Translations under genes and position numbers: made by a program
Notes under the pieces: model-generated
Seen by the model: only the letters and a program-made list of their open reading frames with translations
What the model was told of the DNA's origin: nothing
Databases searched by the model: none
NCBI GenBank assembly: GCA_964490005.1
Contig: CAZBBB010000001.1
Span: forward strand, 19,558-83,557
Source: an uncultured Phycisphaerales bacterium
GTDB taxonomy: Bacteria; Planctomycetota; B15-G4
DNA length: 64,000 bases
Direction of reading: 5' to 3'
Shown here: positions 22,698 to 60,757 of the stretch, in pieces
How positions within the stretch are numbered: the stretch's first letter is position 1
How the letters are laid out: every line of letters begins with the position of its first letter

Positions 22698-25600
22698 ATG
22701 CGCCCGCATCCGTTGATTCGGCTCTTCTCGGCAGTGTTGGTCCTGGTCAGCGGCGGGGCGGCGGCGCAGGTTCCCGGCGAATTTCCGCACCTCCGACTCA
22801 CGGACAACGTGTCGGTGGCCGTGCCTCCGCTGGCAGGGCCCTTCGACAACAGCCACGAGTTTCCCGTGCTGGCGGGCCAGCAGTTCACGGCACAGCTGAG
22901 CTACGCGTCGCTCGGACAGCCGAACACGAACGTGCTCTGGGCCCTCCTCGTCTCCCTGAACAAGACTCCCTTCCCGCAGACGAGTGTCCCCCCGCCGCTG
23001 TTCACCATGCCCCCGTTCTCCCTCATCCTTCCGACACCGGCCACGCTGAACGTCGCGGGCGCGGGCGCTTTGGACATGGTCATCCCGGCGGGCCTGCCGA
23101 GCGGTCTGATCCGCGTGCAGGGGGTGATCCATGACGTGACCTCCGCGCCTGCGTTGAGGTTGAGCAACGGCGTCACGATCAGCGTGCAGGTGCCCGCCTA
23201 CAACATCCGGATGCCGTTGATTCGCAACAAGGAGCTGGGCACGGCCGGTTCATTCGACACCTTTGGCCAGCTCTCGATCGCCGGTTCGCAGCTGAAGACG
23301 TTCACTCCGCTGGGTACGTCGCCACCACCGCAGCCGACGGATCCGCCCTACGCGCCGCCCAAGGCGGGAGTGACCGTCACGATGCAGCCCGGGCTGCTGG
23401 TCGACCGGCACGTGTTCCTGCCCATCCTCCCGAACAACGGCGCCGAGCCGATCAATCCTCTGGCGCGGCCGATGACGCGCATCACGGGGAGCGTGACGGG
23501 GACGGCGACGACGATCACGGTCGAGGACACTTCGTTCTTCCCGTCGCGCGGCCAGTTGCTCATCGCGTTCAACAACGCGAATCTCTGGGCCAACAAGACC
23601 AGCGGCGGGGCGGTCGCTCCGTTCGCCGAGGTCGTCAGCTACGAGGGCATCACGCCGACGAGCTTCCTGAATTGCCAGCGCAAGTTGCTCGGTTCCACCG
23701 GTGCGACGAGTTTCGCGCACGTCGCCGGCGAAGTCGTGCTGGGCGAGTACACGATGGCCACGACGGCGGATGCGCGCACGCGCACCCGGGTGGGGCTCGA
23801 CGCGGACAACGTCGACATGCCGCACGTGGTCATTCCGCCCTTCACCTTTACGCCCGTCGACGGCGGCCCGGTGACCATGGATCTCGACGTCTACCTCTAC
23901 GAGACCGTGACGGACAAGGTCCAGGGCTTCATGGTGTTCGATCGCGCGTCCGGGCAGTGGCGCCCCATTCCCGGCACCGAGCGCAACCCGTTCCAAGGGC
24001 GCTGGAATCCGATGGTCTGCGTCGCGCCCGATGGCCGCAGCCTGCTCGCGACGCTCAGCGTGCCCGGCGGCGTCCTCGGCTGGGACAACAAGGTCGATGA
24101 ACTGCACGCGCTGCGGCTTGACGGACTGAACTGGCCCGCCAGCGGGTCGCAGACCTGGTCGATCTCGTGGCAGGTCGAAGCCGACCCGGCCACGGTGTTC
24201 GTCGTCAGCGCCCGATCGCGGCGCGTCATCATGCGCTCGACCGCGATCATCGGTCCGAATCCCGAGAACTACGTGGCTTTCGTCGGCCTGGCCCACAAGT
24301 TCAAGCAGAGCACGCCGACGCCGGGAGCAAACTTCGAAACGGACAACGGCTTCGAGGGCGTGTGGGTCCGCGAGGAGGTCCTCGTGCGCGACCTGTTCGA
24401 GCTGCCGCTGGTGCCGCCGGGGTCGAGCAAGGCCGCGCCGACCATGCCGCGGCCGTGGATCACGACCCAGTTCGGCAACACGGCCTTCGGTGGAGAGGTC
24501 CGCCGTTTCGACCCCGAGGTCCTGCCTTCCGACGACAATACGCGGCTGTTCATCATCGGAGGGCGCAAGGACACCGAAGAGGCGGCCTTCGTCATCCGCA
24601 ACGTGGGCATCAACGCGGGCGGAGGAGTCGACAAGGTGCTCGTCGACGTCGTCGGCAGCGTGGACAAGCGCGAGATGCGGCCGCCGCGCCGCGGCGGCCA
24701 CGGCCGGGGCCGAACGGCGGCGTTCTCGCCGGATGGCTCGCGCGTCGCCTGGCTCGTCCGCGACACGGCCGCGAACACGCAGCGCAAGGACTGGATCAAC
24801 GTCGCGCTTTCCAGCGGCGCCAGCTTCGGACAAGTCCAGAACGTGTATCAGCTCGGCGCCGACTTCAAGGAGGCCGGTGCGCTCAAGACCGACCGTGTCG
24901 TCACCGGCCTGCGCTTCCTCGACAACAATCGGCTGCTGTTCATGATGGGGCGCAATCCCCACGACGACCCGTTGCCGACCTCCGCGAGCTTCCCGCCGGC
25001 GATGGACTTGTTCGTCTACGACATTCCGTCGAACCTGATCACGAATCTGACAAAGACAGACGGTTCGACGTCGGGCTTCGGAAACCTCGGGAAGATCAAT
25101 CCCGGCGGGTCCTTCGCGTCGTCCACGGGCGCCTTCACCTACTTCCTGAGGTTCGGTGGCAGCAGTTCGGTCGGCGGCTCGGCGTTGCCGCCGGGGACGC
25201 CCGTCACGAATCTCGTCGGCGTGAATTCGGACTCGCTGCAGGTTTTCGCGGTCAGCGGCGACGAATTCGGGCCGGGCGCCTTGATTCCGAATCTGAGGCT
25301 GCCCGACGCCGAGTGCGTCGCGCCCGTCGAGACGGCGGCCTCGCTGCGGCTGCTGCTGGGCGGCGGTGTCCAGGATGGCCTCGTCTGGGTCGTGTCCCAC
25401 CGCCAGGGCGGCAACGGTGCGGACGACATCTTCGCGTTCAACCGAGATGTGCCCTTCGTCAGCTTCGCGGCGACGGCCCATGCGACTCCGGGGACGCACG
25501 TCCGCAACGTCACGCCGAGCCCCTACTCCGGCAAGCTGGCCTTTTCGCGCACGTCGTCGACCTCGAAGATCCTCGCGGACGAGCATCCGTGGGTGATTGA

Positions 25601-25922
25601 CCTCGACAATTTCCTGTTTCTCCGCGACCTGGCGCCGACGCTGACCTTCAACGGAGCGACCCTCGGCCGGGTCATGGACGGCAGCTTCCAGTTCATCGCG
25701 CCCTCCGGGAATGCCGGCGAGGCGCTCGTCATGAGTCTCGGGATCGTGGCGCTCCCCGACACGGGCATCGCCAACTTCGCGGCACCGATCTTCTACCCGC
25801 TGGCGGCGGTCTCGAATCCGATCGCGGAGCCGATTCCGGTCCTCGTGCCGCTGATCAGCACCGCCCTGCTCGGCAACGACTTCCGGTTCTATCTGCCGGC
25901 CGCGGCACCGCTCACGCCTTGA
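22698..25922 (+). CDS. Large secreted multidomain hypothetical protein (~1074 aa; Ig-like N-domain plus probable beta-propeller)
   Basis: Signal peptide MRPHPLIRLFSAVLVLVSGGAAA-Q; TolB/WD-like blade motifs VAPDGRSL, AFSPDGSRVAW, ITNLT and PSPYSGKLAFS. ATG lies 7 nt after TAAACT. Confidence 0.75.
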   Translation: MRPHPLIRLFSAVLVLVSGGAAAQVPGEFPHLRLTDNVSVAVPPLAGPFDNSHEFPVLAGQQFTAQLSYASLGQPNTNVLWALLVSLNKTPFPQTSVPPPLFTMPPFSLILPTPATLNVAGAGALDMVIPAGLPSGLIRVQGVIHDVTSAPALRLSNGVTISVQVPAYNIRMPLIRNKELGTAGSFDTFGQLSIAGSQLKTFTPLGTSPPPQPTDPPYAPPKAGVTVTMQPGLLVDRHVFLPILPNNGAEPINPLARPMTRITGSVTGTATTITVEDTSFFPSRGQLLIAFNNANLWANKTSGGAVAPFAEVVSYEGITPTSFLNCQRKLLGSTGATSFAHVAGEVVLGEYTMATTADARTRTRVGLDADNVDMPHVVIPPFTFTPVDGGPVTMDLDVYLYETVTDKVQGFMVFDRASGQWRPIPGTERNPFQGRWNPMVCVAPDGRSLLATLSVPGGVLGWDNKVDELHALRLDGLNWPASGSQTWSISWQVEADPATVFVVSARSRRVIMRSTAIIGPNPENYVAFVGLAHKFKQSTPTPGANFETDNGFEGVWVREEVLVRDLFELPLVPPGSSKAAPTMPRPWITTQFGNTAFGGEVRRFDPEVLPSDDNTRLFIIGGRKDTEEAAFVIRNVGINAGGGVDKVLVDVVGSVDKREMRPPRRGGHGRGRTAAFSPDGSRVAWLVRDTAANTQRKDWINVALSSGASFGQVQNVYQLGADFKEAGALKTDRVVTGLRFLDNNRLLFMMGRNPHDDPLPTSASFPPAMDLFVYDIPSNLITNLTKTDGSTSGFGNLGKINPGGSFASSTGAFTYFLRFGGSSSVGGSALPPGTPVTNLVGVNSDSLQVFAVSGDEFGPGALIPNLRLPDAECVAPVETAASLRLLLGGGVQDGLVWVVSHRQGGNGADDIFAFNRDVPFVSFAATAHATPGTHVRNVTPSPYSGKLAFSRTSSTSKILADEHPWVIDLDNFLFLRDLAPTLTFNGATLGRVMDGSFQFIAPSGNAGEALVMSLGIVALPDTGIANFAAPIFYPLAAVSNPIAEPIPVLVPLISTALLGNDFRFYLPAAAPLTP

Positions 25923-34700: not shown

Positions 34701-35978
34701 GGCGCCCGCCGGGAGCAGGTCGCGCCGGCCGAGCGTCGCCAGCGCGAAGCCGGCGAGCGGCGCGAGGTAGGCCAGCAGGCCGTGGCGGTAGCGCGCCGCC
34801 GACACGGTGAGGGCGAGGGTCACGACGAGCGCCACGCTCATGACCACGGCGACGCGCGCGAGCGTGTCCCGCGGCAGCGCGCAGACGGCGGCCGCCGCGA
34901 GCGCGAAGAGCACGAGCGTGCCGATCCCGCAGAGCAGCTGCACCAGACGCCCCCAGCCCGCCGGCAGCACCCATGCGTCGCGGAACAGCTCGAAGTTGTT
35001 CGTCGTCGTCGGCCGGTAGCCGTCGAAGGGGATCGCGAAGTAGCACGGCAGCATGACTTCGGGCCCGAGCGCGATCCGCGTGCGGATGAGCGCCCGTCGC
35101 GCCGTGACCCGCGGATACTCGAACAGCGCCCGGCGGAAGACCTCGTGGCCCAGGGCCACGCGCGACGCGACGTCCGGCTGCTTGAGCCACTGGCGCTGGC
35201 CGTCCTGCCCGAGCGGGACGTTGTCGGCCATGAGCGCGTACTCGCCGAAGGTTCCCGACAGGATCGGGACGCCGTGCACGCGCTGGTTGTGCAGCGCCCA
35301 CGGCAGCGTGACGAGCAGGGCGACGCCGCCGACGAGCCCGGCCAGCAGCGCGCGGCGTCCGAGCGCGACGCCCGAGCGCAGCAGCAGCGCCAAGGCCACC
35401 GCCGCCGTCGCGGGCAGCAGCGTCTCCTTCGTCAGGATGCCTGCGCCCAGCACGAGGCCGAGGACCAGCGCCGCCGGCAGCGCGCCGCCGCCGCCGCGCT
35501 CCAGCCGCGCATCGAGGCGATCGAGCGCCCACAGCGCCGCCGCGGCGGCCAGCGCGGCCGGCGCCTCCGCCATGGCGACGACGGCCGAGTACAGCACGGC
35601 CTGCGGATAGAGCGCGTAGATCCAGCCCGTGGCGGCCGCGGCGCGGGCGCCCCAGCGCCGGCGCGCGACGGCCATGAGCAGCGCGCAGGCGGCGAGGTCC
35701 ATCGCGATGTGGATCAGGAACACGCCGGGGTAGGCCTGCGCGGGTTCCACCGAGGTGTCGAAGCCGGGCGCGATCAGGATGCGGTGCAGCGGCGGCCGCA
35801 CGCCCGCCGCGAGCCACGAGAAGTTGCCGGTCGCGCGGTATTCGCGCCCGAGGTACAGATAGCCGTTGGCGTCGCCGGCCTGCGGCACCTCGGCGGCGAG
35901 CGGCAGGCAGGCCAGACGCACCGCCAGGGCCGCGAGCAGCGGTCCGAGCAGCGCGGCGCGCCCGGCGAGCCTGCTCAC
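34623..35978 (-). CDS. ArnT/PMT-like (GT-C fold) polytopic glycosyltransferase
   Basis: GTG 35978 (GTGA overlap with ygiQ); [40 protein letters not shown] and RYRHG. Confidence 0.75.
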
Positions 35979-37996
35979 GGGGCCGGCGGCCGGCGCGGCG
36001 GTCGACGGCCCGCCTTGCCGCCCGGTCGAGGCCCCTGGCCCTTGCGGCGCGGATCGAGCAGCCCCTTCTCGTGCACGTAGCGGCCCAGTTCGTCGCCACG
36101 CCGGCGCGCGCGGGAGGCGAGCGCCGCCGCGGGCGGTTCGCCCGGGATCAGGCACTGCGGTCCGTCGCCGATGAGGTCGGCGCGGCCCGCCTCGCGCAGC
36201 GCCCGGTCGACCTCGAACCAGTTCTCGGGCTTGAAGAACTGCATCAGCGCACGCTGCATCCGGCGCTCACCGAGCTTGCGCTGCACCGGCAGGGGCTGCA
36301 GCGTGTGGGGGTCGAGGCCCGTGTACCAGGCCGAGGTGGCGAGATCCATCGGGGCGGGGATGAAGTCCTGCACCTGGCGCGGCCGGTAGCCGGCCTGCTT
36401 GAGGAACAGCGCCAGTTCGATCATGTCGTGCAGGTCGCAGCCCGGGTGCCCGGCGATGAAGTAGGGCACGAGGTACTGCTCCTTGCCGGCTTGCCGGCTG
36501 GCGCGCTCGAAGCCTTCGGCGAATTCCTCGAAGCTCGCCTGGGGCGGCTTCTTCATCGCCTGCAGCACGCGCTCGCTGACGTGCTCGGGCGCCACCTTGA
36601 GATGCCCGCCGACATGGTGTTCGGCCAGTTCGCGCAGGTACTCCGGCGAGCGCGCGGCGAGATCCATGCGCACTCCGGAGGCGATGAAGACGCGCTTGAC
36701 GCCCGGCCGTTCGCGCGCGCCGCGCATCAGGTCGATGAGCGGCCCATGGTCGGTGCCGAGGTGCCGGCACACCGACGGGAAGATGCACGAAAGCCGTCGG
36801 CAGCGCGCCTCGGTCTGCGGCGAGCGGCAGCGCATCGCGTACATGTTGGCCGTCGGGCCGCCCAGATCGCTCACGTGCCCCTTGAACTCCGGGTCGGCCG
36901 CGAGCGCGTCGACCTCGGCGAGCACCGAGGTCTTGCTGCGCGACTGGATCACGCGCCCCTGGTGCGTCGTGATCGAGCAGAACGAGCAGCCCGCGAAGCA
37001 GCCTCGCAGGATCGTCACGCTGTCGCGGATCATCTCCTCGGCGGGCACCGCCTCGCGGTAGGAGGGATGGCGCCGGCGCGTGAACGGGCGGTCGTAGAGC
37101 GCGTCCATCTCGGCCTCGTCGAGCGGCATCGCGGGCGGGTTCTGCACGACGAGCCGGTCGCCGTGGGCCTGCACGAGCCGGCGCGCGTTGAAGGGGTTGC
37201 TCTCGCGGTGGATCAGCCGCGTGGCGATCGAGAAGGCGACGACGTCGTCGCGCGTCTCCTCGAAGGACGGCAGCCGCACGGTCGCCGCATCGGGCCCGTC
37301 CTCGGCGCTCGCGTCGGGATCGGGCGTGCCCGCGGCGCACATGCTCCGCGCGAAGGGCGGCAGCGGCTCCGAGCGTCCCAGCAGGTAGCTCGTGCCGCGG
37401 ATGTCGCGCAGCGCCTGCAGCCGCTCGCCCCGATCGAGGCGCCGCGCGATCTCGACGACGGCGCGCTCGCCCATGCCGAACACCAGCAGGTCGGCCTTGC
37501 TCGAGACGAGCATCGAGGGACGCACGGTCTCCGACCAGTAGTCGTAGTGGGCCAGCCGGCGCAGGCTGGCCTCGACGCCGCCGGCGACGACGGGCACTCC
37601 CGGGGCCGCCTCGCGGCAGCGCTGCGCGTAGACGTTCGTGGCGCGGTCGGGCCGCGCCCCGGCGCGACCGCCGGGCGTGTAGGCGTCGTCGCTCCGCGGC
37701 AGGCGGCTCGCGGTGTAGTGGTTGATCATGCTGTCCATGTTCCCGGCCGAGATGCCCCAGAACAGGCGGGGCACGCCGAGCGCCAGGAAGGGCTGCACCG
37801 AGCGCCAGTCGGGCTGCGCCAGGATCGCCACCTTGAATCCCTGCGCTTCGAGCGTGCGCCCGACGAGCGCGGCGGCGAAGGACGGATGGTCGACGTAAGC
37901 GTCGCCCGAGACGAGCACGACGTCGGGACGATCCCAGCCGCGGGCCGCGATCTCGGCCCGCGTCATCGGCAGCGGCGTGGCGGGCGGGCGGCTCAT
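35975..37996 (-). CDS. ygiQ: YgiQ-family radical SAM protein
   Basis: ATG 37996; [34 protein letters not shown] (CxxxCxxC), [18 protein letters not shown] and PYFIAGHPG. Confidence 0.93.
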
Positions 37997-38031
37997 CGCG
38001 AGCGCCCCGTCCGAGCGGGCCGGAGGTCCGC

Positions 38032-38166
38032 TCAGCGGCGGCCCAGGACGCGTCCCCGGCTGCGGCGGCGACGGATCACGTTGCGGCCGTTGGCGGTCTT
38101 CATGCGCGTCCGGAAGCCGGTCTTGCGGCCACGCTTGGTGTTGCTCTTGCGCACCTTGACGTGCAT
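38032..38166 (-). CDS. rpmH: 50S ribosomal protein bL34 (44 aa, not in the ORF track)
   Basis: Manual translation [44 protein letters not shown] matches the GFRxRMxTxxGRxVxxRRRxxGR core. Confidence 0.88.
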
Positions 38167-38205
38167 GGGGAACTCGATTCCGGGGGCGGGGGGCGATCGG
38201 GCATT

Positions 38206-39141
38206 CTAGGCGAGCGGTCGCTGCCGTCGCAACTGCGCGAGCAGGACCGACAGGTCCTCGGGCAGGGGCGCCGTGACGCGCAGCGGCCCGCGCTTGAACT
38301 CGACGGCGTGCAGCGCCGGGCGCTGCAGGAGCGGACGCTCCGGGCGGCCGCGCTTGGGGCGGTAGTCGAGCTTGATCTGGCTCAGCAGCAGCCGGTCGTC
38401 CTCGCCGTACAGCTTGTCGCACAGGGCCGGGACGCCGAGCGCGCCGAGGTGCGCGCGCACCTGGTGGCTGCGCCCGCCCTCCTCGCACCACAGCCGCAGG
38501 ACGAGAAACCCGCGCAGGGCCTCCTGCAGGCGCCAGCAGGTGGCGGCCGGTTCGCCGTGATCGGGATCGGGCACCAGGCGCGCGTCGCTCTTGCGCGCCT
38601 TGCCGAGCGGGACGTCGATGCGTCCTTCGCTCCCGTCGAGGGCGCCGCGCACGATGGCGAGGTACTCCACGCGCGCCCGGCCGACGCGGAAGTCGCCCTC
38701 GAGGGCCTCGCCGGCCTCCTTGCCCCGCGCGGCCACGACGAGCCCCGAGGTGTCCTTGTCGAGCCGGTGGGGCGCGCGCAGGCCGGTGCGCCCCTCTCCG
38801 AGCGTGCCCAGCGCCGAGGCGCCGGGCCGGCGCCCTTCGGCGAAGGGCAGCCCGCTGGGCTTGTCGGCGACGAGCAACTCGTCGTCCTCGTGCAGGATCG
38901 TCACGGGGCGCCGCCGGCGACTCTCGAGCTGATCGACGGGCCGCGTGAGCTGCACCTGGTCGCCCAGGCGCAGCGTCGCGCCCGAGCGCTGCGCCACGCC
39001 GTTGAGCAGCACGTGCCCCTCGCGCAGCGCGCTCATCAGCAGCCGGTGGTCGAAGGGGCCGGCGCAGGCCTCCAGGAAATCGAGCAGCGAGAGGCCCTTG
39101 TGCTCGCGTCCGACCTCGTAGACCTGTTCGTTGTCGTCCAT
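38206..39141 (-). CDS. RluA-family (RluD-like) pseudouridine synthase with an S4-like domain
   Basis: [20 protein letters not shown] (catalytic Asp), [15 protein letters not shown] and ALHA. Confidence 0.9.
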
Positions 39142-39197
39142 GACTCGGCCGCGCCGCCGAGTCTACCCGGGTGCCGTCGCGCGCCTCCAGCGCGCGC

Positions 39198-40985
39198 TCA
39201 GAGCACGTCGAAGCGCACGAGGTTGCTCGCGCGCAGCGCGTCGGTCCGGACGAGCGCCTGCAGGTACAGGCGCAGACCGGAGAGCGCCGGATCGGCCGGC
39301 ACCGTCCCGGCGAAGGACACGTTGCCCGCGCCGTCGAGTCCGAGCGGCAGCAGCAGACTCGGCGCGACGAGCAGCGGCTGGCCGGAGGGCAGCGGCAGCT
39401 GGGTCGTCGCCGTCGAGAGCACCAGCCAGGCCACGGACGCGCCCGTCGGGCCGTCGAAGCTGAGCGTCACGGCGCCGCCCGGCGGGGCCGGGTCGGGCAG
39501 CAGGTCCAGCGCGGCACCCCAGGCGACCGGCACCAGCGTCACGTCGATCGCGCCCCAGGCGGGCAGGTCGTGCAGCAGCGCCCCGTCGAAGGGGGCGCTG
39601 TCCTGTCCCGGCGAGAGGCCGCCGCCGGGACCGGTCACGAGGTAGCCGGAGGTCGAGGCCCAGCGCAGCCGCGAGGTCTGGCCGTCGGCCGTGTTCGCGA
39701 TCCAGCGCGGGGGCAGCGGCAGTTCGGCGGACGCGCCCGCGATCGTGAGCTGCTCGACGTTCGTCAGGTCGAGCACGCGTCCCAGGCCGGCGTCGCGCTC
39801 GCCCGCCACCCACGAGAACTGGCCGAAGCCGCGCTGGCGGACCGCCGTCCACGACACGACCGAGTCGCGGTCGACGAGCGCGCGGAAGTTCGCCGGGCGG
39901 CGCTGCGCCGTCACGCCCGCGAGGAAGGCGAACAGCTCGGCCTCGTCGAGCACCGCCCAACTGTGCGTGGCCGGCGCGCCCGTCTGCGGGTGCACGGTAC
40001 CCGTCACGGGGCGCTGCACGAGGAGTCCGCCCGCGCCGAGCAGCTGCGAGGCGAGCACGCCGCTCTGCGCGGGCAGATAGGTGATCGAGTCGCCGAGATC
40101 CCACGTGAGGTACGTGGGCGTGGCGTGCAGGTTGACCGCCATCGACGACGCGCCCGCGAGCGCGCCGGGCGTCGGCGGGTAGCTGAAGGGGTCGAAGTGC
40201 AGCGTGCTGCTGCGCTGGTAGTTCCACGGCGCGAACACGGGCGCCGCGCCGAAGTTCCACGGGTTGTGCATCCACGGCTGCACGGCGGGTTCGAGCAGCC
40301 AGGTCTGCATCCAGTCGAAAGAGCCGGCGACGAGGCCCAGCCCGGCGATCATCAGGCCGTCCGGGTCGCGGTGGCGCGCCGCGAAATTGGCGACGGCGCC
40401 CGCGCCCATCGAGAAGCCGACCATGTGGATGCGGTCGGGATCGATGGGGAAGCGCGCCCTCATCCAGGCGATCGCGGCCTCGACGTTGGTCTGCGTGGGC
40501 GGCGTGCCGAACAGCTTGTCGTCGATGCCGGTGACCGAGAGGTAGGCCCAGCCGTGGGCGGCGCAGAACTCGTCGAGCGCGGTCTGCAGCGAGACGCTGT
40601 TCGCGGAGGAGCCGAAGCCGTGCCACGCCACGAGCAGCGGCACGAGCTGCCCCGGCGCGAGCGCACCCGACGGCGCCTGGTACTGGATGTGCTCCGCCAT
40701 GCCGGTGCCCGTGACGCCGGCGGGCAGCACCGTCGACACGGGCGCGACGGGCGAGGAGTGCGCGCTCATGCCGGCGGGGAGGTCGCGCGGCGCCGGCCGC
40801 ACGTCGATGCGGTCGGCGTAGAGCATCGTCGAGCGCGAGGCGTTCGGCGCCAGGGCGGGCAGCGCGCCGGGCAGCAGGCTGGCAGGCTGCGCCGGGAGCT
40901 GCGGCTTCTGCACCTGGCCGTGCGCCCCGGCGGCGAGGCCCGCGAGCAGCAGCGCGATCGTCAGCGGCAGCGGGGCGGAGCGCAT
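39198..40985 (-). CDS. Secreted alpha/beta serine hydrolase (esterase/depolymerase-like) with a C-terminal Ig-like domain, paralog 1
   Basis: Signal peptide; AWHGFG, GFSMG nucleophile elbow, WDLGD and HSWAVLDE. Confidence 0.75.
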
Positions 40986-41036
40986 CGCCGATCCATCGGC
41001 GCGCGGCCCGCTGCGCCTTGAGGGCCGGGCCGCCGC

Positions 41037-42203
41037 TCAGCCGTCGCCGGGTGCGTCGGTCAGGCGCGCGATGGCGTCCTGCAGTCCGAGCCCGTCCTCG
41101 GGGTGGAGCGCGAGCACCGCGCGGTAGAGCTCGAGGGCCTCGGCGCGTTCGCCGGCCGTGCCGTCCTTCTCCAGCAGCCGCGCGAGCTCGAAACGCGCGC
41201 GGGCCGTGTCCTGCGTCGAGCGCGCCTGCGCGACGGCGAGACGCAACTCCTCGAGCGCCTCGCGGCGCTTTCCGACGCGCGCCAGCGCGACGCCGAGATT
41301 GATGCGCGCCGGCACGAAGTCGGTCTCGACCTGCGTCGCGCGGCGAAAGTACTCGATGGCCTCCTCGAAGCGCCGCTGCTCGGCGCGCACGAAGCCAAGG
41401 TTGTACAGGGCGCGGCCGTGCTCGGGCCGACGCTCGAGCACGTGCGCGAGCGCGCCCTCGGCGTGCGCGAGCAGGCGCGGATCGCCGCCCCGATGGCTGT
41501 AGAGGTCGAGGAAGGCGCGCGCCGCGCCGTCGGCGGCGTCGACGTCCTCGGGATCGGCCGCCAGCCGCGCCCGGAAGCTGGAGAGATAGGCGTGGGCCTG
41601 CTGCAGCTCCTGGCCCAGCTCGCGCTGCGCACGCGCCTCGGCGGCGCCCGCCGCCCCGCGGGCCGCGGCGACCTGCGCGAGGCCGAAGTGCGCCTCGGCC
41701 GCCTGCGCGCCGTAGGGGTCGACGGTGAGGTAGTCGCGAAAGGCCCGCTGCGCCGTCGCGTCCTCGTTGCGCAGCAGCGCCAGCCGCCCGCTCGCGAGCA
41801 GCAGGGCCGGGTCGTCGGGGACGAGCGCGCGCGCACGCTCGAACTGCGCCGCGGCCTCGTCCAGCGCGCCGGTGTCGAGCAGCATCAGGCCGAGACGCAG
41901 GCGCGCGTTGCCGTTGCCCGGGTGGGCCGCGATCTCGGCGCGCCACGCGGCCAGGGCCTCCTCCGTGCGGCCGAGATCCTGCAGCGCCAGCGCGCGGTAG
42001 TGCAGGGCGCCCTCGGGCAGCGCGCCCCGCCGCTCGGCCTGCGCCAGGCTGTCGAGCGCCGCCTGCGCATCGCCGGCCGCCAGCGCCGCGGCCAGTTCCG
42101 GCAGGCCGGCGAGGGCCGACTGGGGGTCGAAGGGGCGGGCGTCGGGTCCGCAGGCCGCGGCGACGCCGAGCAGCAGCACGAGAGCGCCGGAGCGTGGGCT
42201 CAT
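41037..42203 (-). CDS. Tetratricopeptide-repeat lipoprotein
   Basis: ATG 42203 (ATGA overlap); lipobox VAAA-C; TPR helices (ALYNLG, ARINLG). Confidence 0.8.
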   Translation of the reverse strand: MSPRSGALVLLLGVAAACGPDARPFDPQSALAGLPELAAALAAGDAQAALDSLAQAERRGALPEGALHYRALALQDLGRTEEALAAWRAEIAAHPGNGNARLRLGLMLLDTGALDEAAAQFERARALVPDDPALLLASGRLALLRNEDATAQRAFRDYLTVDPYGAQAAEAHFGLAQVAAARGAAGAAEARAQRELGQELQQAHAYLSSFRARLAADPEDVDAADGAARAFLDLYSHRGGDPRLLAHAEGALAHVLERRPEHGRALYNLGFVRAEQRRFEEAIEYFRRATQVETDFVPARINLGVALARVGKRREALEELRLAVAQARSTQDTARARFELARLLEKDGTAGERAEALELYRAVLALHPEDGLGLQDAIARLTDAPGDG

Positions 42204-43915
42204 GGAGTGCGGACCGGACCGAGGGGGACGCGGCGGACGATGCCCTGCCCGCGGCGGATCGTGAGGTGCCAGCCGCCCATCATCGCCGCCGCGTCGAGGA
42301 CTTCCAGTTCGCCGCCGGGCCAGCGCACCGTCGCCGCCGTCACCGGACGCGGCAGCGCGAGGTGCAGGCGCGGGTCGGAGCGGCTCTGGAAGCCGCCGCC
42401 CGAGAGCACGGGCAGCGTCGACGTGCCCTCGGCATCCGACACGCTCAGCGTGGCGCCGATCACCGGGCGTACGTCCTGCAGCGTGACCAGCAGCGCGCGC
42501 GCCGGGTCGTCGGCGCGGTTGAGGTACAGCCGCGGCGCGCCGTCGAGCGTCAAGGTGATCAGGTCCAGATCCCCGTCGTCGTCGAGGTCGCCGCGCAGCG
42601 ACGTGCGCCCGCGAAGCGGCGTGGGGTCGGGGAACGGGACTTCCTCGAAGCGCGCACCCGGCTGGCCGAGGAACAACTGCTGGCGCTGCGCGTAGCTCGA
42701 GCCCGTGTCGGGCAGGTCGGCCTGCGGGTAGACGTGGCCGTTGGCGACGTACAGATCGAGCAGGCCGTCGAGATCGAAGTCGGCCAGGTGCACGCCCCAA
42801 CCCAGCATCGGTCGGCTGGCCGCCGCGAGACCGGCGGCCGTCGCGACGTCGCGGAACAGCAGCCCGCCGTCGTTGCGGTACAGCGCGTTGCTCTCGTCGG
42901 AGAAGTTCGTGACGACGAGGTCGAGGTCGCCGTCCCGGTCGACGTCGCCGGCGTCGACGCCCATCCCGGCCTGCGCGCGGCCCGCGAGATCGACCGAGGC
43001 GCCGGACGGCCCGCTCAGGTCCTGAAACACGCCGTCGCCGCGATTGCGGAAGAGGAAGTTGGGCACGGAGTCGTTCGCGACGTACAGGTCGACGTGTCCG
43101 TCTCCGTCGAGGTCGGAGAAGAGCAGGCCGAGGCCGAAGGACGGGGGCGCGTCGGCGAGGCCGGCGCGTCGCGTCGCCGGCACGAACCACGGCGCCTCGC
43201 CGAGGCCGGCGAGGTACACGTCGGGTTGCGGCGGCAGCCCGTGCGGGCCGCACATCACGGGGTGCCCCTTGAAGCGGCAGGGCAGCGCGCCTACCCGATC
43301 GAGCGGCGGATCGGCCGGGTCGATGCTCAGGTAGCGCACGAGATAGGCGTCGAGCCGGCCGTCGCCGTCGGCGTCCGCGAGGCCCACGCTGGTCGTCCAG
43401 TCGAGCGCCGAGTCGCGGCCCGGCACGGCGTGCTTCTCGAACACGGGCCGGTCGAGGCCGTCGCGCCGCGCGAGGAACAGCGCGTCCTCGACGAGGCCGC
43501 CGACGAGCAGGTCGTCGCGGCCGTCGCCGTCGACGTCGCCGACGGCGATGCCGGTGGGCCAACCCGCCTGCCGCAGCCCGGTCGGGTACGCCGCGCGCGC
43601 GAAACGCGGCACGCCGTCGACCACGCCTTCGTGGATCATCAGCAGGTGCTCGACCTCGGCGCCGGCGAGCAGCGCGGCGCGCGTCGAGCCCTGCACGAGC
43701 AGCAGGTCGAGGTCGCCGTCGTCATCGACGTCCAGCAGGGCCGCGCCGTTGCCGTTCACGGTGAGGATCGTGTCCTTCAGGCCCGGCTCGCCGCAGGTGA
43801 GCACGAGGTCGGCCAGCCCCGCGGCGGCACTGCGCTCCTCGAACAGCGGGACGGTCGGCTCAGCGCATGCGGCCAGCGTGACGGCGAGCAGCGCGGCCAG
43901 GCGAAGGACATCCAT
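42200..43915 (-). CDS. CRTAC1-family lipoprotein (FG-GAP repeats plus ASPIC/UnbV domain)
   Basis: ATG 43915; lipobox TLAA-C; repeated DxDxDGxxD motifs, LYVAND, LFRNRGDG, GMGVDAGD, and C-terminal SGGGFQSRSDPRLHL. Confidence 0.9.
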   Translation of the reverse strand: MDVLRLAALLAVTLAACAEPTVPLFEERSAAAGLADLVLTCGEPGLKDTILTVNGNGAALLDVDDDGDLDLLLVQGSTRAALLAGAEVEHLLMIHEGVVDGVPRFARAAYPTGLRQAGWPTGIAVGDVDGDGRDDLLVGGLVEDALFLARRDGLDRPVFEKHAVPGRDSALDWTTSVGLADADGDGRLDAYLVRYLSIDPADPPLDRVGALPCRFKGHPVMCGPHGLPPQPDVYLAGLGEAPWFVPATRRAGLADAPPSFGLGLLFSDLDGDGHVDLYVANDSVPNFLFRNRGDGVFQDLSGPSGASVDLAGRAQAGMGVDAGDVDRDGDLDLVVTNFSDESNALYRNDGGLLFRDVATAAGLAAASRPMLGWGVHLADFDLDGLLDLYVANGHVYPQADLPDTGSSYAQRQQLFLGQPGARFEEVPFPDPTPLRGRTSLRGDLDDDGDLDLITLTLDGAPRLYLNRADDPARALLVTLQDVRPVIGATLSVSDAEGTSTLPVLSGGGFQSRSDPRLHLALPRPVTAATVRWPGGELEVLDAAAMMGGWHLTIRRGQGIVRRVPLGPVRTP

Positions 43916-43963
43916 GCCGGCCGAAGATACGGAGCGGCGCCGCCGGCGGTCCATCGCCGTCGG

Positions 43964-45835
43964 TCAGTCGATCTCCATCACCCACATGTTGCTGACGGAG
44001 ACGACGTCGTTGGCCCCGTCGACGACCAGGCCCTGCAGCCGCAGCGTCAGGCCCTGGTAGGACGGCTCGTTCGGCATCAGGAAGCTGAGCGAGAAGTCGC
44101 CGTCGACGTCGAGCGGCAGGGGGATCAGGAAGGCCGGCGGCACGGCCTTGACCGTGATCACCGCGCCGCCCTTCACCGTGGCGAGCTGTTCGTCGGTGCC
44201 GACGAGCAGCCAGATCGTGCTTCCGCCCGCGGGGGCGTCGATGTCGAGATCCATCACGGTGCCGATCGGCACCGGGTTGGGCGAGGTCGTGACGTCGGTC
44301 GTCCACAGCGGGTCGAGGATCAGGTCGGCGTCGAGGCCGCCGCTGACGGGCACCTCGACGATCAGATGGTCGACCTCGGGGTCGCTCGTCGCGCCGGTGA
44401 CGAGCTGGCCGCTGTTGGCGTCGAGCAGATAGGCCGGCGGGACGTCGAAGCCGCCCAGCACCAGATTGAACGCGGCGCTCAGCGGGGCCGGTGCCGCCGC
44501 GACCGCGACCGGGTCGCCGCCCGCGATGCCGATCGCCGCGCCGTCGATCTCGACCGAGCGCGCGTTGTGCACGTCGAACACGTCGACCTCGCGCCCGGCG
44601 GCCTCGGCGAAGCCCTCCACGTAGGTGAAGGCGTTCGTCGTGGTCTGCACCACGGAGGCCCACGAGACGTCGGCCGAGAGGTCGAGCTGCGCCTCGAAGG
44701 TCGCGGGCGTGCGCACGACGCTCAGGCCGTCGAAGAAGTCGAAGGCGTCGGCCTCGTCGAGCACGGCCCAGCTGTGCGGCGCCGGGAGCAGCGTGATCGG
44801 GTCGACCGTGCCGCTCACGGTGTGCCAGTCGAGCGTGCCGCCGAGCGCCGCGAGCGCGTCGCGCAGGATCGGATTGAGCGTCGACGACTCGACGACCGGG
44901 TCGCCCGTGTCCCAGACCATGTAGGTCGGCACGCTGCCCAGATTGGTGGCCATCGACAGCGCCGTCGAGAGCGCGCCGGGCAGCGGGGGATAGCTGCCGA
45001 TCGCGTGGTGCAGCGCGCTGGCCTGCTGGTAGCGGAAGGGCTGCGCCGACGGCGCGCCGCCGAAGTTGAAGGGGTGCTCCATGAGCGTCTTCACGCCCGA
45101 GGTCGTGACGCTGTAGGTCATCGCCCAGTCGCACGAGGTGCTGACGAGCGCGAGGCCGGCGATCATCAGGCCGTCGGGATCACGGTGCCGCGAAGCGAAG
45201 TTGGACACCACGCCGCCGCCCATCGAGAAGCCGATCATGTACAGACGGTCGGGATCGACGTTGAAGTTGTTCAGCATCCACTGGATGGCGGCCGCGACGT
45301 TCTGCTGGCTGACCGGCGTGCCGAACAGCTTGTCGTCGAGGCCCGTCGGCGCCATGTAGACCCAGCCGCGCGCGTTGCACTCCTCGTCGATGGTCGACTG
45401 CACGCCGACCGAGTTGGCCGAGGCGCCGTAGCCGTGATACGCGATGACCATCGGATGCGGCGGCCCGCCCGCGCTGTAGGAGTTGCCGAGCTGGTACTTG
45501 AAGGACTCGCCGATCGTCGTGCCGGTGCCGGTCGGTCCGGCGGGGATCCAGCCGGTGAACATGGTCGGCGGCGCGCCGTCCTGCGACTCCCAGACCTCCT
45601 GGTTCACCGGGAAGCGGTCGGCGAACTCGAGCACGTGGCGCGGGCTGTCGGCGAAGACGGGCGGCAGCGGCGCCATGCCGAGATCGCCCGTGAGCCGCAG
45701 GCGCGCGAGCTGCTCGGCGTGATCGGCCGCGTCGAGGCGCTCCTGGGGCGCGGCGGGCGACGCGGCGAGCTGCGCCGGCGCGGCCATGGCCAGCGCGGCG
45801 AGCGTGACGGCGACGAGAGGGAGTTTCGGCTTCAT
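43964..45835 (-). CDS. Secreted alpha/beta serine hydrolase with a C-terminal Ig-like domain, paralog 2
   Basis: ATG 45835 MKPKLPLVAVTLAALAMA signal; AYHGYG, GFSMG, WDTGD and HSWAVLDE; strongly similar to 39198..40985. Confidence 0.75.
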   Translation of the reverse strand: MKPKLPLVAVTLAALAMAAPAQLAASPAAPQERLDAADHAEQLARLRLTGDLGMAPLPPVFADSPRHVLEFADRFPVNQEVWESQDGAPPTMFTGWIPAGPTGTGTTIGESFKYQLGNSYSAGGPPHPMVIAYHGYGASANSVGVQSTIDEECNARGWVYMAPTGLDDKLFGTPVSQQNVAAAIQWMLNNFNVDPDRLYMIGFSMGGGVVSNFASRHRDPDGLMIAGLALVSTSCDWAMTYSVTTSGVKTLMEHPFNFGGAPSAQPFRYQQASALHHAIGSYPPLPGALSTALSMATNLGSVPTYMVWDTGDPVVESSTLNPILRDALAALGGTLDWHTVSGTVDPITLLPAPHSWAVLDEADAFDFFDGLSVVRTPATFEAQLDLSADVSWASVVQTTTNAFTYVEGFAEAAGREVDVFDVHNARSVEIDGAAIGIAGGDPVAVAAAPAPLSAAFNLVLGGFDVPPAYLLDANSGQLVTGATSDPEVDHLIVEVPVSGGLDADLILDPLWTTDVTTSPNPVPIGTVMDLDIDAPAGGSTIWLLVGTDEQLATVKGGAVITVKAVPPAFLIPLPLDVDGDFSLSFLMPNEPSYQGLTLRLQGLVVDGANDVVSVSNMWVMEID

Positions 45836-45988
45836 GCAACGGCCGGCGGGAGAGTCCGTGCATCGGCGGGTCGCAGCGGTACGGCGCGTCGGGGAGCGCT
45901 GCGGCTCGACGGCGGGTGCCAGTCTAGCCGCGCTCCGCCATTTCGGCAAAGCGCCCCGGCGGGCCTCGGAACGTACAGTAGCCCGCCC

Positions 45989-47005
45989 ATGTTCGACCTC
46001 CGCAGCGACACCGTGACCCGCCCGACGCCCGCCATGCGCCAGGCCATGGCCGAGGCGCGCGTGGGAGACGACGTCTTCGGCGACGATCCCACGGTGAACG
46101 CGCTGCAGGATCGCGCCGCCGCGCTGTTCGGGAAGGAGGCGGCGCTGTTCGTGCCCTCCGGGACGATGGGCAACCAGGTGTGCCTGGGCGCGCTGACGCG
46201 GCCGGGCGACGAGATCATCGCCGAAGCCGAGGCGCACATCCTGATCAACGAGGTGGGGTCGGCGGCGCGGTTGTGGGGCTGCCAGATCGTGCCGCTGGCC
46301 GGCAGGCGGGGCGTGCTCGACCCCGCGGCGGTGGAGGCCGCCATCCGCGTCGAGGACATCCACCACCCCGTCAGCCGGGTGCTGTCGCTGGAGAACACGC
46401 ACAACTATTCGGGCGGCTCGGTGCTGCCGCTCGCCTCGATCGACGCCTTGTCGTTGCTGGCGCGACAGCGGGGCCTGGCGCTGCACATGGACGGCGCGCG
46501 CCTGTTCAACGCCCAGGTCGCCAGCGGCATCCCGGTCGCGCGCATCACGCGCGACGTCGATCTCGTCTCGGTCTGCCTCTCGAAGGGGCTCGGCGCGCCC
46601 GTGGGTTCGCTCGTTCTGGGGAGCCGTCCGCTCGTCGATCGCTGTCGTCGGCTGCGCAAGGCGCTCGGCGGCGGCATGCGCCAGGCCGGCGTGCTCGCCG
46701 CCGCGGCCCTGATCGCGCTCGAGACGGGGCCGGCCGCGCTGGCCGCCGACCACGCGCGGGCCCGGGCCTTGGCCCTCGAACTGTCGCGGCTGCCGGGCGT
46801 CGAGATCGACCCCGCGCAGGTCGAGACCAACCTCGTCTTCGTCACGACGCGGCGCGACGCCAACGCGCTGGCGGACGAGCTGGCGCGGCGCGGCGTGCGG
46901 GCGATCGCGCTCTCGACCACGCGCCTGCGTTTCGTGTTCCACCGCGACGTCGGTGACGACGCGCTGACTGCGGCCGTCGAGGCCTGCCGCGCCGTGCTGC
47001 GCTGA
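45989..47005 (+). CDS. ltaE: Low-specificity L-threonine aldolase
   Basis: ATG 45989 MFDLRSDTVT; GDDVFGDDPTV, PSGTMGNQ, LENTHN, HMDGARLFNA, CLSKGLGAPVGS (PLP Lys) and GGGMRQAG. Confidence 0.93.
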   Translation: MFDLRSDTVTRPTPAMRQAMAEARVGDDVFGDDPTVNALQDRAAALFGKEAALFVPSGTMGNQVCLGALTRPGDEIIAEAEAHILINEVGSAARLWGCQIVPLAGRRGVLDPAAVEAAIRVEDIHHPVSRVLSLENTHNYSGGSVLPLASIDALSLLARQRGLALHMDGARLFNAQVASGIPVARITRDVDLVSVCLSKGLGAPVGSLVLGSRPLVDRCRRLRKALGGGMRQAGVLAAAALIALETGPAALAADHARARALALELSRLPGVEIDPAQVETNLVFVTTRRDANALADELARRGVRAIALSTTRLRFVFHRDVGDDALTAAVEACRAVLR

Positions 47006-57633: not shown

Positions 57634-60600
57634 TCAGCCGCCTTCGGTGACGACTTCGACGGGCGCGATCCGCTCGAGTTCGTCCTTCACGACCGCGGCG
57701 TCGCCGACGACGACGATGAGCAGCCGCTCGGGGTCGAGCAGGTCGGCGGCCGTCTCGCTCACGTCCTGCGCCCGCGTCGACGCGATGCGCTTGAGGTAGC
57801 CGTCCCACCAGTCTTCGGGCAGGCCCTCGAGCCGCAGCGACCACAGCCGCGAGGCCACGGCCTGCGGCGTCTCGAGCGAGCCCGCGAAGGAACCCGTGAT
57901 GTAGCTCACCGCGTCGCCCAGCTCCTTGGCCGAGGGCGGTTCGTCGCGCATGCGCGCGACCTCGTCGATGACGGCCTGCACCGTCTCGGCGGTGGTGGGC
58001 GTCTTCGTGAAGGTGCGCACGCGGAACTCCCCGCCGAAGCGATCGGAGGACAGCCCGCCGCTCGCGCCGTAGGTCAGGCCCTTCTGCACGCGGAGGACGT
58101 CGTTGAGCCGGCTGCTGAAGGAGCCGCCGAAGATCTGGCTGAGCACGACGCCCGGCGCGTAGCGCGCGTGCCGGCGCGTGATGCCCTCGTGCCCGGCGAT
58201 GATCTCGCTCTGGATCGCGCCCGGCTTGTCGACGAGCACGATGCGGCGCGCGCCCGGCGCGACAAGCGGCGGCAGGGGGACGTCGACGGCCTCGCCCTCG
58301 ACCTCCCAGTTCGCGATGGTGCGCGCGGCGAGGGCCTCGGCCTCGTCGATCGACACGTCGCCCGCGACGTACAGCACGGCCTGCTCGGGACGCACGAAGC
58401 GCTCCCACCAGTCGCGCAGGACGTCGGGGTCGAGCCGCTTGATGTCCTCGCTGGTGCCGTCCGCCGGGCGCCCGTAGGGATGCTCGCCCCACAGGGCGCG
58501 CGCGAAGGCGCGGGCGGCCATGGCGGCCGGCGACTTCTCCTCGATGGCCTTGCCGGTGGCCGTCTGGTCGCGCAGCGTGGCGAACTCCTTGTCGTCGAAG
58601 CGCGGCACGGCCACGACCTCGGCGAGCAGCTTGATGGCGCGCTCGAGATCCTCGGTGAGGCAGCTCGCCGACACGCTGGCCGAGTCGTGGTCGGCGCCGG
58701 CCGAGAGCGAGATGCCGTTGCGTTCGAGTTCGAGCGCGAGCGCCTCGGCGTCGCGCACCATCGTGCCGCGCGTGATCATCGAGGTCGCCATCGAGGCCGT
58801 GCCCGGCCGCGCGGGGTCCTCGGTGAAGGAGCCGACCGGCAGTTGCAGCGAGAGCGAGACGAAGGGCAGCTCGCGGTTCTCGACGACGACGAGCTGCAGG
58901 CCGTTGTCGAGCACGCGCGACTCCGACGCGAGGCGCACGCCGCCGGCGAGCGCCGGCGCGACCGGCGGCGCGTCGGGGTAGCCCGGCGGGGGGCTGGCTT
59001 CGGCCTTGGGGCCCGTGGCGCGCGCGCGCCGGCCGCGCTCGAGCTCCTCGGCGGGCGCGGCGTCCTCCTTCGCCTCGGCGGCGTCGCCGCCCAGCGCGAG
59101 CACCGAGCGGAACATGCTCCCCAGGCCCGGCTTGATCGTGACCTCGGTGAGGCGCTCGGGCACGAGGTAGGTCTGCGCCACGCGCTGCAGGTCGGCCGTC
59201 GTGATCGCGCTCATCTGCGCGATGCGCTCGTTGGCGAGCTGCGTGTCGCCCCACAGCGTGGCGGCCTGCCCCAGCGCGCTGGCCTTGCTCTCGATCGTGA
59301 GCCCGGCCGTGACGTCGGCGCGGATCATCTGCTTGCGCACCTTGGCCAGCTCGTCCTCCGTGACGCCGGCCTCGCGCACGAGCGCGACCTGCTCGTGCAG
59401 CGCGGCGAGCACCTTGCCGGTGTCGCCGAAGGGCATCGTGAGGCCCACGAGCGCGGCGAAGCCGGCCTGCTCGAGGCCGATGTACAGGCCCATGCCGGCG
59501 ACGGCGATCTCCTTGCGGCGCACCAGGTCGACGTAGACGCGGCTGCTCTCGCCGCCGCCGAGGATCGACATGAGCAGCTCGAGCGGCAGCGCGTCGGCGT
59601 GGCCCTCGGGCACGGCGCGGAAGGCCAGGCCGGCGATCGGCACCGGGCCGTTCTCGGGTTCGATGACCAGCGTGCGCGGGGCGGTCTGCGGCGGCTCGAC
59701 GACGGTCACGCGCGGCGGCTCGGCGCAGCGCGGGATCCAGCCGAAGCACTTCTCGGCCAGCGCGCGCACCTGCGCGTGCTGCACGTCGCCCACGACCACG
59801 AGCGTGGCGTTGTTCGGCACGTAGTAGGTGTCCCAGAACTTCTGGATGTCGTCGGGCGTCGCGGCGCGCAGGTGCTCGATCTGGCCGATCGGCGACCAGC
59901 GGTAGGGGTGCACCGTGAACAGGTTGGCGAGCAGCTTCTCGGCCACGTCGCCGTAGGGCTGGTTGAGGCCCAGGCGGCGCTCCTCCTCGACGACGGCGCG
60001 CTCGGTGGCGAAGCCGCCCTCGTCGATGACCAGCGCCGACATGCGCTCGGCCTCCAGCCACAGCACCATCTCGAGCTGGTTGGCCGGCAGCTCCTGCACG
60101 TACACGGTCTGGTCGAAGGACGTGTAGGCGTTGCAGTCGCCGCCGGTGCGGCGCACGTAGTCGAAGTGGTCCTTCGGCCCGAGGCGATCGGTGCCGCGGA
60201 ACATCATGTGCTCGAACATGTGCGCGAAACCCTGCCGGTCGGGCTGCTCGTCCTTGCTGCCGACGTGGTACCAGAGCTGCACGGCCACGATCGGCGTGCT
60301 GTGGTCCTCGAGCGAGACCACGCGCAGGCCGTTGTCGAGCACGACCTCTTCGAAGGGCAGCCGGCCCGTGCCGCGGCGCACCGCCCGCGCGCCGACGGCG
60401 GGCGCGGCGTCGGCGACGGCGCTCTGCAAGGTCACGCTCGTCGCGGGCGCGGCGGGCGCGGTCGGGGAGGCGGGCGCCGTCGCTGCGGCGGGTGCAGCGG
60501 GCTCCGCGGCCTCGCTCGGCGCGGCGGGTTCCGCCGGCACGACGGCGACCGAGCGCGCGCGCACCACCGGCACGCGCCCGGAGGCGCAGCCGCCGGAGAG

Positions 60601-60657: not shown

Positions 60658-60757
60658 GGCAGGCCTCCGGGATCGGCGGGACGGCACGCGCACGGCGCGC
60701 GCCCGGCGCGCGCCGGCAGCGCACGCACGCGACGCGGCGCGCCCCGCGCATGGCGAC

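Follow-up and report, generated by a model that had tools for sequence, protein, structure and literature searches.

In a 64,000-nucleotide stretch of contig CAZBBB010000001.1 from an uncultured Phycisphaerales bacterium (hereafter the window, with a G+C content of 73% over its whole length), three predicted exported proteins, which we call A, B and C, were found to carry the same terminal domain (Table 1). The original prediction, made from the letters of the window, had proposed that an unnamed domain of about 100 amino acids recurs in three secreted proteins; it started from the minus-strand interval 39198-39510, which is the 3' end of the open reading frame (ORF) of protein A. The three peptides that it quoted lie where it had placed them in A, B and C, and the shared domain was confirmed by profile homology, with a length of 108-114 amino acids in A and B and about 112 in C.

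Table 1 Proteins, domain copies and neighbouring genes in the window.
Feature	Position	Strand	Length	Remarks
Protein A	39198-40985	-	595 aa	Sec signal peptide, alpha/beta-hydrolase, middle beta region, terminal domain
C-terminal domain of A	39201..39524	-		residues 488-595; predicted beta-sandwich up to the stop codon (39198-39200)
Protein B	43964-45835	-	623 aa	length counted from MKPKLPLV; paralog of A throughout its length
C-terminal domain of B	43967..44308	-		last 114 residues
Protein C	22698-25922	+	1074 aa	
N-terminal domain copy of C	22857..23192	+		residues 54-165; AlphaFold2 pLDDT 86
Operon	38206-45835	-		compact; order B, FG-GAP/ASPIC lipoprotein, TPR lipoprotein, A, RluA-type pseudouridine synthase
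FG-GAP/ASPIC-UnbV lipoprotein	42200..43915	-		lipobox LAAC; between B and A
TPR lipoprotein	41037..42203	-		start ATG overlapping the FG-GAP stop codon (ATGA)
YgiQ-type radical SAM gene	35975-37996	-		operon flank
Threonine aldolase	45989-47005	+		operon flank

All three proteins showed on inspection a classical Sec-type signal peptide at the N-terminus. The predicted cleavage site of A lies just before Q; the signal peptide of B is MKPKLPLVAVTLAALAMAAPA, and that of C is MRPHPLIRLFSAVLVLVSGGAAA, with cleavage before QVPG. Protein B, whose sequence is identical to that of database cluster P0040, ends in LPLDVDGDFSLSFLMPNEPSYQGLTLRLQGLVVDGANDVVSVSNMWVMEID, with the stop at 43964. In protein C the domain starts about 30 residues past the predicted cleavage site, and the segment ATLNVAGAGALDMVIPAGLPSGLIRVQGVIHDVTSAPALRLSNGVTISV is located at ~23040-23186.

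BLASTP comparison showed that A and B are full-length paralogs (40% identity over 568 residues, E 2e-113). Because they are paralogous throughout, the likeness of their tails is ordinary paralogy and not module shuffling, and since the two genes are in one operon, only C represents an independent occurrence of the domain within the window. The description of the carriers as unrelated exported proteins therefore held for C, which is unrelated to A and B, but not for A and B themselves. Pairwise comparisons of C with A or B were not significant (BLASTP E 0.67 and worse), and a hidden Markov model (HMM) of 58 A/B-family tails, which matched protein B at E 1.7e-40, scored C at no better than E 7.5 when run on 618 six-frame segments of the window. 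Both results are what would be expected from a chance likeness of short motifs in a high-GC proteome rich in Ala, Gly, Leu and Pro, with no common domain in C. Pairwise tests being insufficient, the homology of C was settled by profiles, including one built from third-party members. The A/B-tail profile aligned with the profile of the N-terminal part of the C family (hhalign 74%, E 2.8e-5, 97 columns). A generic HMM, built from 74 third-party instances of the domain with hydrolase-family and C-family proteins left out, matched A (E 2.6e-23) and B (E 1.2e-23) as well as 34 C orthologs, all at the same position (E 2.6e-12 to 1.7e-4), the C of the window being the weakest match (E 0.0076). Against the 1072-column alignment of the full-length C family, the generic profile gave one match only, at the expected place, residues 54-165 of C (hhalign probability 95.6%, E 1.3e-8, 103 columns). 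AlphaFold2 predicted a 10-strand beta-sandwich for the tail of A, with a predicted local distance difference test (pLDDT) score of 96.5, and a beta-sandwich for residues 22-175 of C (pLDDT 86); under the hhalign register the strands of the two models appear to pair one to one. The chance explanation is refuted by the ortholog matches of the independent profile and by the C-family alignment at E 1.3e-8, the agreement in predicted strand order also stands against it, and we give it next to no probability. Profile comparison thus establishes that the three stretches belong to a single uncharacterised domain family with an immunoglobulin (Ig)-like beta-sandwich fold.

Members of the family are about 110-125 amino acids long and share a core signature of a hydrophobic strand, (L)D..G, a strand, (I)PxDPxLxG, xxxxxQ(A/G)hhxD, a loop and (L)SN(G)hxhxh. 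Two glycines, the proline and glycine of the PxDPxLxG loop and one glutamine are invariant or nearly so, and a near-invariant D, S and N are also present across the family. The generic form, of about 125 amino acids, has the core consensus ...LLVxP....lPlDaxG...l...iPnDPxLxG..lyxQa.v.Dpga..g..lSNgLel.ig. and bears on its N-terminal side a cap, YGxGCxGxxGxxPxL, frequently accompanied by a pair of cysteines. The cap is lacking in A, B and C, which are divergent members of the family. Most members outside the window have the additional cap together with a second cysteine in '..GGC.LL..' (P0156, P0173, P0189, P0191, P0196, P0202, P0206, P0221 and P0225 are examples of capped members), which suggests a disulfide that would have been lost in A, B and C.

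To find how widely the domain occurs, we searched 1.84 billion representative proteins exhaustively with HMMER and the A/B-tail profile, which returned 978 protein clusters (50% identity) at E<=1e-3, 59 of them at E<=1e-10. Among the best 150 of the 978, 34 belonged to the hydrolase family and 79 others had a near-complete domain. In 74 of these 79 non-hydrolase carriers the domain ended within 20 amino acids of the C-terminus, mostly within 5, and in the remaining 5 it began right after the signal peptide, as in the C family. The domain is thus almost never internal, is C-terminal in about 95% of cases and occurs almost always once per protein. The passengers recognised by Pfam among 52 carriers included FG-GAP/VCBS, lamin-tail (LTD), Kelch, beta-helix, CotH, PKD, subtilase S8 and PQQ glucose/sorbosone dehydrogenase domains, and those recognised by NCBIfam included ELWxxDGT repeats, choice-of-anchor B, X and Q, delta-60 repeats, and relatives of a myxosortase-dependent M36 peptidase, an LPXTG-anchored peptidase and the PEP-CTERM protein ScyF. 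These are the kinds of passengers that have C-terminal sorting signals in other phyla. The NCBIfam name 'choice-of-anchor' denotes families in which the sorting signal at the end of the protein differs from lineage to lineage, and in the choice-of-anchor carriers found here this domain fills the slot of the sorting signal. The 978 clusters with their many unrelated passengers bear out the proposal of a portable module on exported proteins.

We also scanned 185,579 species genomes with a degenerate DNA motif for PNDPxLxG-x5-QA and obtained at least 120 loci; the strict motif is present in 4 of the 74 representatives and so covers about 5% of the domain variants. The counts that follow refer to the loci among the matches listed. 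The HMM detected the domain at 98 of 120 loci; the 22 negative loci were chance matches (Mycobacterium, Actinomycetota, Sphingomonas and others), and they also included two loci of insufficient length for scoring, as well as three labelled Planctomycetota without a detectable domain. Fewer than 10 residues separated the domain from the stop codon in 118 of the 122 domains in ORFs that reached a stop. Signal-peptide-like N-termini, called by a crude hydrophobicity heuristic and not by SignalP, were found in 63 of 84 carriers (75%) vs 65 of 264 neighbouring ORFs without the domain (25%), an odds ratio of 9.2 (Fisher p 2e-16).

The distribution agrees with a lineage restriction, as had been proposed. 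All seven members named to phylum were labelled Planctomycetota, including Rohdeia mirabilis Pla163, and so were 88 of the 98 domain-positive loci, including Engelhardtia mirabilis Pla133; nine of the others were an unclassified 'bacterium' and one was labelled Saprospiraceae. The last (L032, contig CBDCVZ010000010.1) has a VCBS/FG-GAP-like ORF ending in the domain; at 66% G+C its label is doubtful, and either the bin bears a wrong label or the domain does occur, rarely, outside Planctomycetota. The median G+C content of the positive loci was 0.70, with a few at 0.49-0.55. The flanks of the 98 seeds contained 28 further copies per 702 kb, or about 1 per 25 kb, and the window contains 3 per 64 kb, which gives about 1 per 21-25 kb overall. 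By rough extrapolation, which clustering may have inflated, a genome of 5-7 Mb would have about a hundred carriers or more. Scans with the A/B-tail HMM and the generic HMM found no fourth copy in the window. A co-distributed outer-membrane or processing gene, which the original prediction had led us to look for, was not found near the 98 loci: no partner gene recurred, and clustering of the neighbours gave only large generic families (kinase/NtrC-type regulators, histidine kinases, ECF sigma factors, beta-lactamase-like proteins, Lon and sulfatases).

No Pfam-A or NCBIfam model covered the domain in A, B, C or the 52 diverse carriers, and domain-only sequences had no match to either collection even at E<=10. 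The generic profile had no match among PDB sequences (best E 0.44). Foldseek comparisons of the A and C models with the PDB returned only generic Ig-like sandwiches at E>=5e-4, the best being a shark VNAR (E 5.1e-4) and reeler (E 1.1e-3), with template-modelling (TM) scores of at most 0.62. A word-indexed search with the tail of A alone gave no match, the domain being too divergent for 5-mer seeding, and we found no description of the domain in the literature on the Saltatorellus clade and on sorting signals and secretomes of Planctomycetes. It is thus an unannotated domain family without a solved structure, and Pfam, NCBIfam and the PDB have no counterpart of it. With 978 clusters, an enrichment of export signals at p 2e-16 and no characterised domain matched, the view of a new module that accompanies exported proteins was upheld.

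Some sequences at the margins of the family were set apart. Tandem-repeat giants of 1400-2800 amino acids with 5-14 repeats (P0111, P0113, P0130, P0137, P0138, P0143, P0149, P0152 and P0165) matched only the first ~50-70 positions of the A/B-tail profile; they were rejected as carriers, with only the first half of the profile matched and the resemblance being that of generic Ig repeats. Several of them end in tails like the C-terminal domain (CTD) of the type IX secretion system (T9SS), e.g. ...LLPGAYNVKVQFDGQVSNKRLIKVK. There were also small proteins with little besides a signal peptide and the domain (L029, with an ORF of ~150 amino acids, P0154 and P0210). Within the window, a weak match of the domain HMM to the gene at 57634-60693 (-) was checked and judged spurious; this gene encodes a 1019-aa two-unit M16 (pitrilysin-type) peptidase with an Ala/Pro-rich N-terminal extension. 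Very long antisense or out-of-frame ORFs occur at many places, e.g. 36071-38209 (+), 39171-41021 (+) and 42194-47005 (+). They are an expected artefact of 73% G+C and not genes, the coding signature being absent (low contrast in G+C at third codon positions).

The enzymatic part of A and B is of the alpha/beta-hydrolase type and esterase-like, as indicated by a G-x-S-x-G elbow and a match to a model of the hydrolase fold. The nucleophile elbow GFSMG is kept in 58 family members in the family alignment, and the candidate catalytic residues of A are Ser192 in this elbow, D296 or D299 as the acid and H341 as the base. Protein B passed the cut-off of Pfam Abhydrolase_3 (26.7 bits vs 25) and A remained under the cut-offs; among solved structures, the metagenomic esterase LC-Est1C is the closest relative (3wyd, E 2.7e-6). 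Neither protein is a member of the extracellular short-chain polyhydroxyalkanoate (PHA) depolymerases: the NCBIfam model (NF050058 / TIGR01840) scored 28.5 and 27.5 bits vs a cut-off of 150, with the alignment confined to the region around the nucleophile. Protein A has 62 homologs of about 600 amino acids with the same architecture, and the few that are named by organism are metagenome-assembled genomes (MAGs) of Planctomycetota, one being labelled Pseudohongiellaceae. The distant hydrolase homologs P0063 and P0064 are without the domain tail, which may be counted as support for a modular gain of the domain. The order of the genes in the operon is kept in a relative assembled to 5.29 Mb (L001, 4825-14992), there with three hydrolase paralogs. 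The FG-GAP/ASPIC-UnbV lipoprotein encoded between B and A showed no copy of the domain in the scans with the two HMMs.

Protein C has 35 homologs of about 1070-1100 amino acids, of which the few named by organism are labelled Planctomycetota except one Pseudohongiellaceae. No Pfam, NCBIfam or PDB relative was found for residues 166-1074 or for the same part of the 35 homologs, and a search of PDB sequences with the C-family profile gave no match. Beyond the domain the family keeps about 100 invariant columns, including an FSPDGxRVAW motif that is reminiscent of blades of PD40/TolB-type propellers. The C family is thus a large conserved secreted family that is wholly uncharacterised. The representative of a 90%-identity cluster, P0065, begins its signal peptide with MRPRPLIRLL, compared with MRPHPLIRLF in the C of the window (22698-22740); since the signal peptides differ, close population variants of C exist in public data.

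We consider that the domain may serve as a terminal targeting or retention module for exported proteins, a reading to which we assign an even chance. The role was inferred from the position of the domain, its co-occurrence with signal peptides and the kinds of its passengers, and it is favoured because known modules with such properties are overwhelmingly of that kind; T9SS CTDs, dockerins, SLH domains, and sortase and exosortase signals all combine them. The proteins would first be exported by Sec, after which the domain would bind a common receptor of the envelope, either a protein or a glycan, or alternatively a machine dedicated to export or attachment. In this way the module would deliver a variety of enzymes, propellers and repeat proteins to the cell surface or keep them there. 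In the window the domain would serve the esterase-like A and B, apparently co-transcribed with the FG-GAP and TPR lipoproteins, and also the unrelated protein C. A position-tolerant role in binding or anchoring fits better than a C-terminal translocation signal, since the C family and about 5% of the other carriers have the domain at the N-terminus. A further-reaching version, in which the domain is the recognition tag of an undescribed Planctomycetota-specific pathway that delivers or attaches a large part of the Sec-exported proteome to the surface, is tentative, and we would sooner expect it to fail than to hold.

Several observations weigh against a targeting or retention role. A secretion signal strictly tied to the C-terminus is disfavoured by the N-terminal copies, a placement that is not known for true signals of this kind. 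The gene neighbourhoods of the 98 loci gave no link to secretion or attachment machinery, only large regulator, kinase and sulfatase families. The rare stand-alone proteins would, as a pure tag, carry nothing. In A and B there is no obvious linker between the middle beta region and the domain, which could be an integral part of these enzymes. In addition, the taxonomic picture comes from loci among the matches listed for a GC-biased DNA motif, and the hydrophobicity heuristic makes the signal-peptide calls coarse.

Other roles are compatible with parts of the same evidence. The domain may be a substrate- or ligand-binding module, similar to a carbohydrate-binding module (CBM) or to the C-terminal binding domain of PHA depolymerases, that sticks to an external polymer or surface and not to the cell's own envelope. 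The weak similarity of A and B to extracellular PHA-depolymerase-type esterases, which combine a catalytic and a C-terminal binding domain, points in this direction, as do the single terminal copy on a beta-sandwich that is typical of CBMs, the placement at either end that is usual for binding modules, and the stand-alone copies. However, no Pfam or NCBIfam CBM model matched even at E<=10, most passengers are not polymer-degrading (FG-GAP, ELWxxDGT, Kelch and LTD), and the family has no conserved aromatic platform, its invariant residues being G, P and Q and its near-invariant ones D, S and N. A new CBM family may still agree with the sequences, and we regard a binding module as unlikely.

It is also conceivable, with a probability that we put as minor, that the domain is a passive Ig-like end-cap, which stabilises the passenger, assists its folding or oligomerises it, and which was spread by domain shuffling in one lineage without any targeting information. 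The generic fold with only weak PDB matches (antibody, reeler and GH3 accessory domains), the match of the first half of the A/B profile to the tandem Ig repeats of the giant proteins, and the continuity of the domain with the preceding beta region in A and B would be explained in this way. Ordinary Ig-like spacers, however, are usually internal or in tandem, whereas this domain is single-copy and terminal in >95% of cases, and the retention of the invariant Q and the near-invariant D and SN across very different passengers suggests a shared interaction. Improbable in our view is a cleavable secretion signal of a dedicated outer-membrane translocon, which would make the domain a functional analogue or a very divergent member of the T9SS CTDs. 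Size, fold class, extreme C-terminal position and single copy would agree with such a signal, and so would the Sec signal peptide at the opposite end, the restriction to one lineage and the large number of cargos in a genome; but no Por_Secre_tail model matched, a C-terminal signal is not compatible with the N-terminal copies of the C family and others, no candidate translocon was seen in the neighbourhoods of the 98 loci, and T9SS is not known in Planctomycetota.

A targeting or retention module would be of interest since protein transport past the periplasm and the retention of proteins on their unusual, flexible envelopes are poorly understood in Planctomycetota, and the carriers include Engelhardtia and Rohdeia, relatives in the shapeshifting Saltatorellus clade. 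A terminal single-copy domain on about 1000 protein clusters offers a concrete handle on retention at the surface of these bacteria; with it a candidate surface proteome can be drawn up from sequence alone, and the partner machinery can be sought by phylogenetic profiling. Several hundred 'hypothetical proteins' of MAGs would gain a first structural and localisation annotation. If the domain were the tag of a dedicated pathway, the cargo would be about a hundred or more proteins per genome, as roughly extrapolated from ~1 copy per 21-25 kb.

The role of the domain had originally been likened to those of T9SS CTDs and PEP-CTERM signals, without likeness in sequence. The lack of a sequence match was verified, and the likeness in role has to be limited, as the N-terminal copies of the C family and of about 5% of the carriers are unlike both systems. 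The short tripartite signals (PEP-CTERM/exosortase, MYXO-CTERM, LPXTG/sortase and GlyGly-CTERM) occupy the same C-terminal slot on the same passenger families (choice-of-anchor, ELWxxDGT and proteases), but they are ~25-35 amino acids long, with a motif followed by a transmembrane helix and then a basic tail, whereas the new domain is a folded globular domain of 110 amino acids without a transmembrane helix. The ends of A and B (...SNMWVMEID in B) are the last beta strand of the predicted fold and not a tripartite tail, and no match of NCBIfam sorting-signal models was reported on these tails. SLH domains and dockerins are likewise terminal modules that tie many exported proteins to a common receptor and may stand at either end; they differ in being helical and of an EF-hand-like Ca-binding fold, respectively, with no relation to the new domain in sequence or fold. 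Ig-like and CBM accessory domains (Big, PKD, FN3-like and reeler-like) share the fold class, with best Foldseek TM scores of 0.45-0.6, but they are commonly internal or in tandem, and the matches were weak (E >= 5e-4) and came with no family model match.

The CTDs of the T9SS of Bacteroidota (Por_Secre_tail, TIGR04183 / PF18962) are also Ig-like beta-sandwiches, of ~80-110 amino acids, that occur once per protein, at the very C-terminal end of Sec-exported proteins whose passengers are highly diverse. As with the new domain, they are restricted to a lineage and reach tens to hundreds of carriers in a genome, a number that is extrapolated for the new domain. The combination of a C-terminal domain with an N-terminal Sec signal is found in A, B and about 95% of the carriers, but not in C with its 35 homologs or in 5 of the 79 representatives. 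TIGR04183 / PF18962 matched neither A, B, C and the 52 carriers nor, at E<=10, the domain-only sequences, and no T9SS core genes (SprA/Sov, PorV, PorU and PorK-N) were seen in the neighbourhoods, that is, in the 8-kb loci and the 64-kb window. The new domain differs from these CTDs in its signature, LDxxG...PxDPxLxG...Q...D...SN, in its occurrence in Planctomycetota, and in the N-terminal position of about 5% of its copies and of the whole C family. Among the known systems, the domain is most like the T9SS CTD in architecture and distribution, yet it stands outside that family model.

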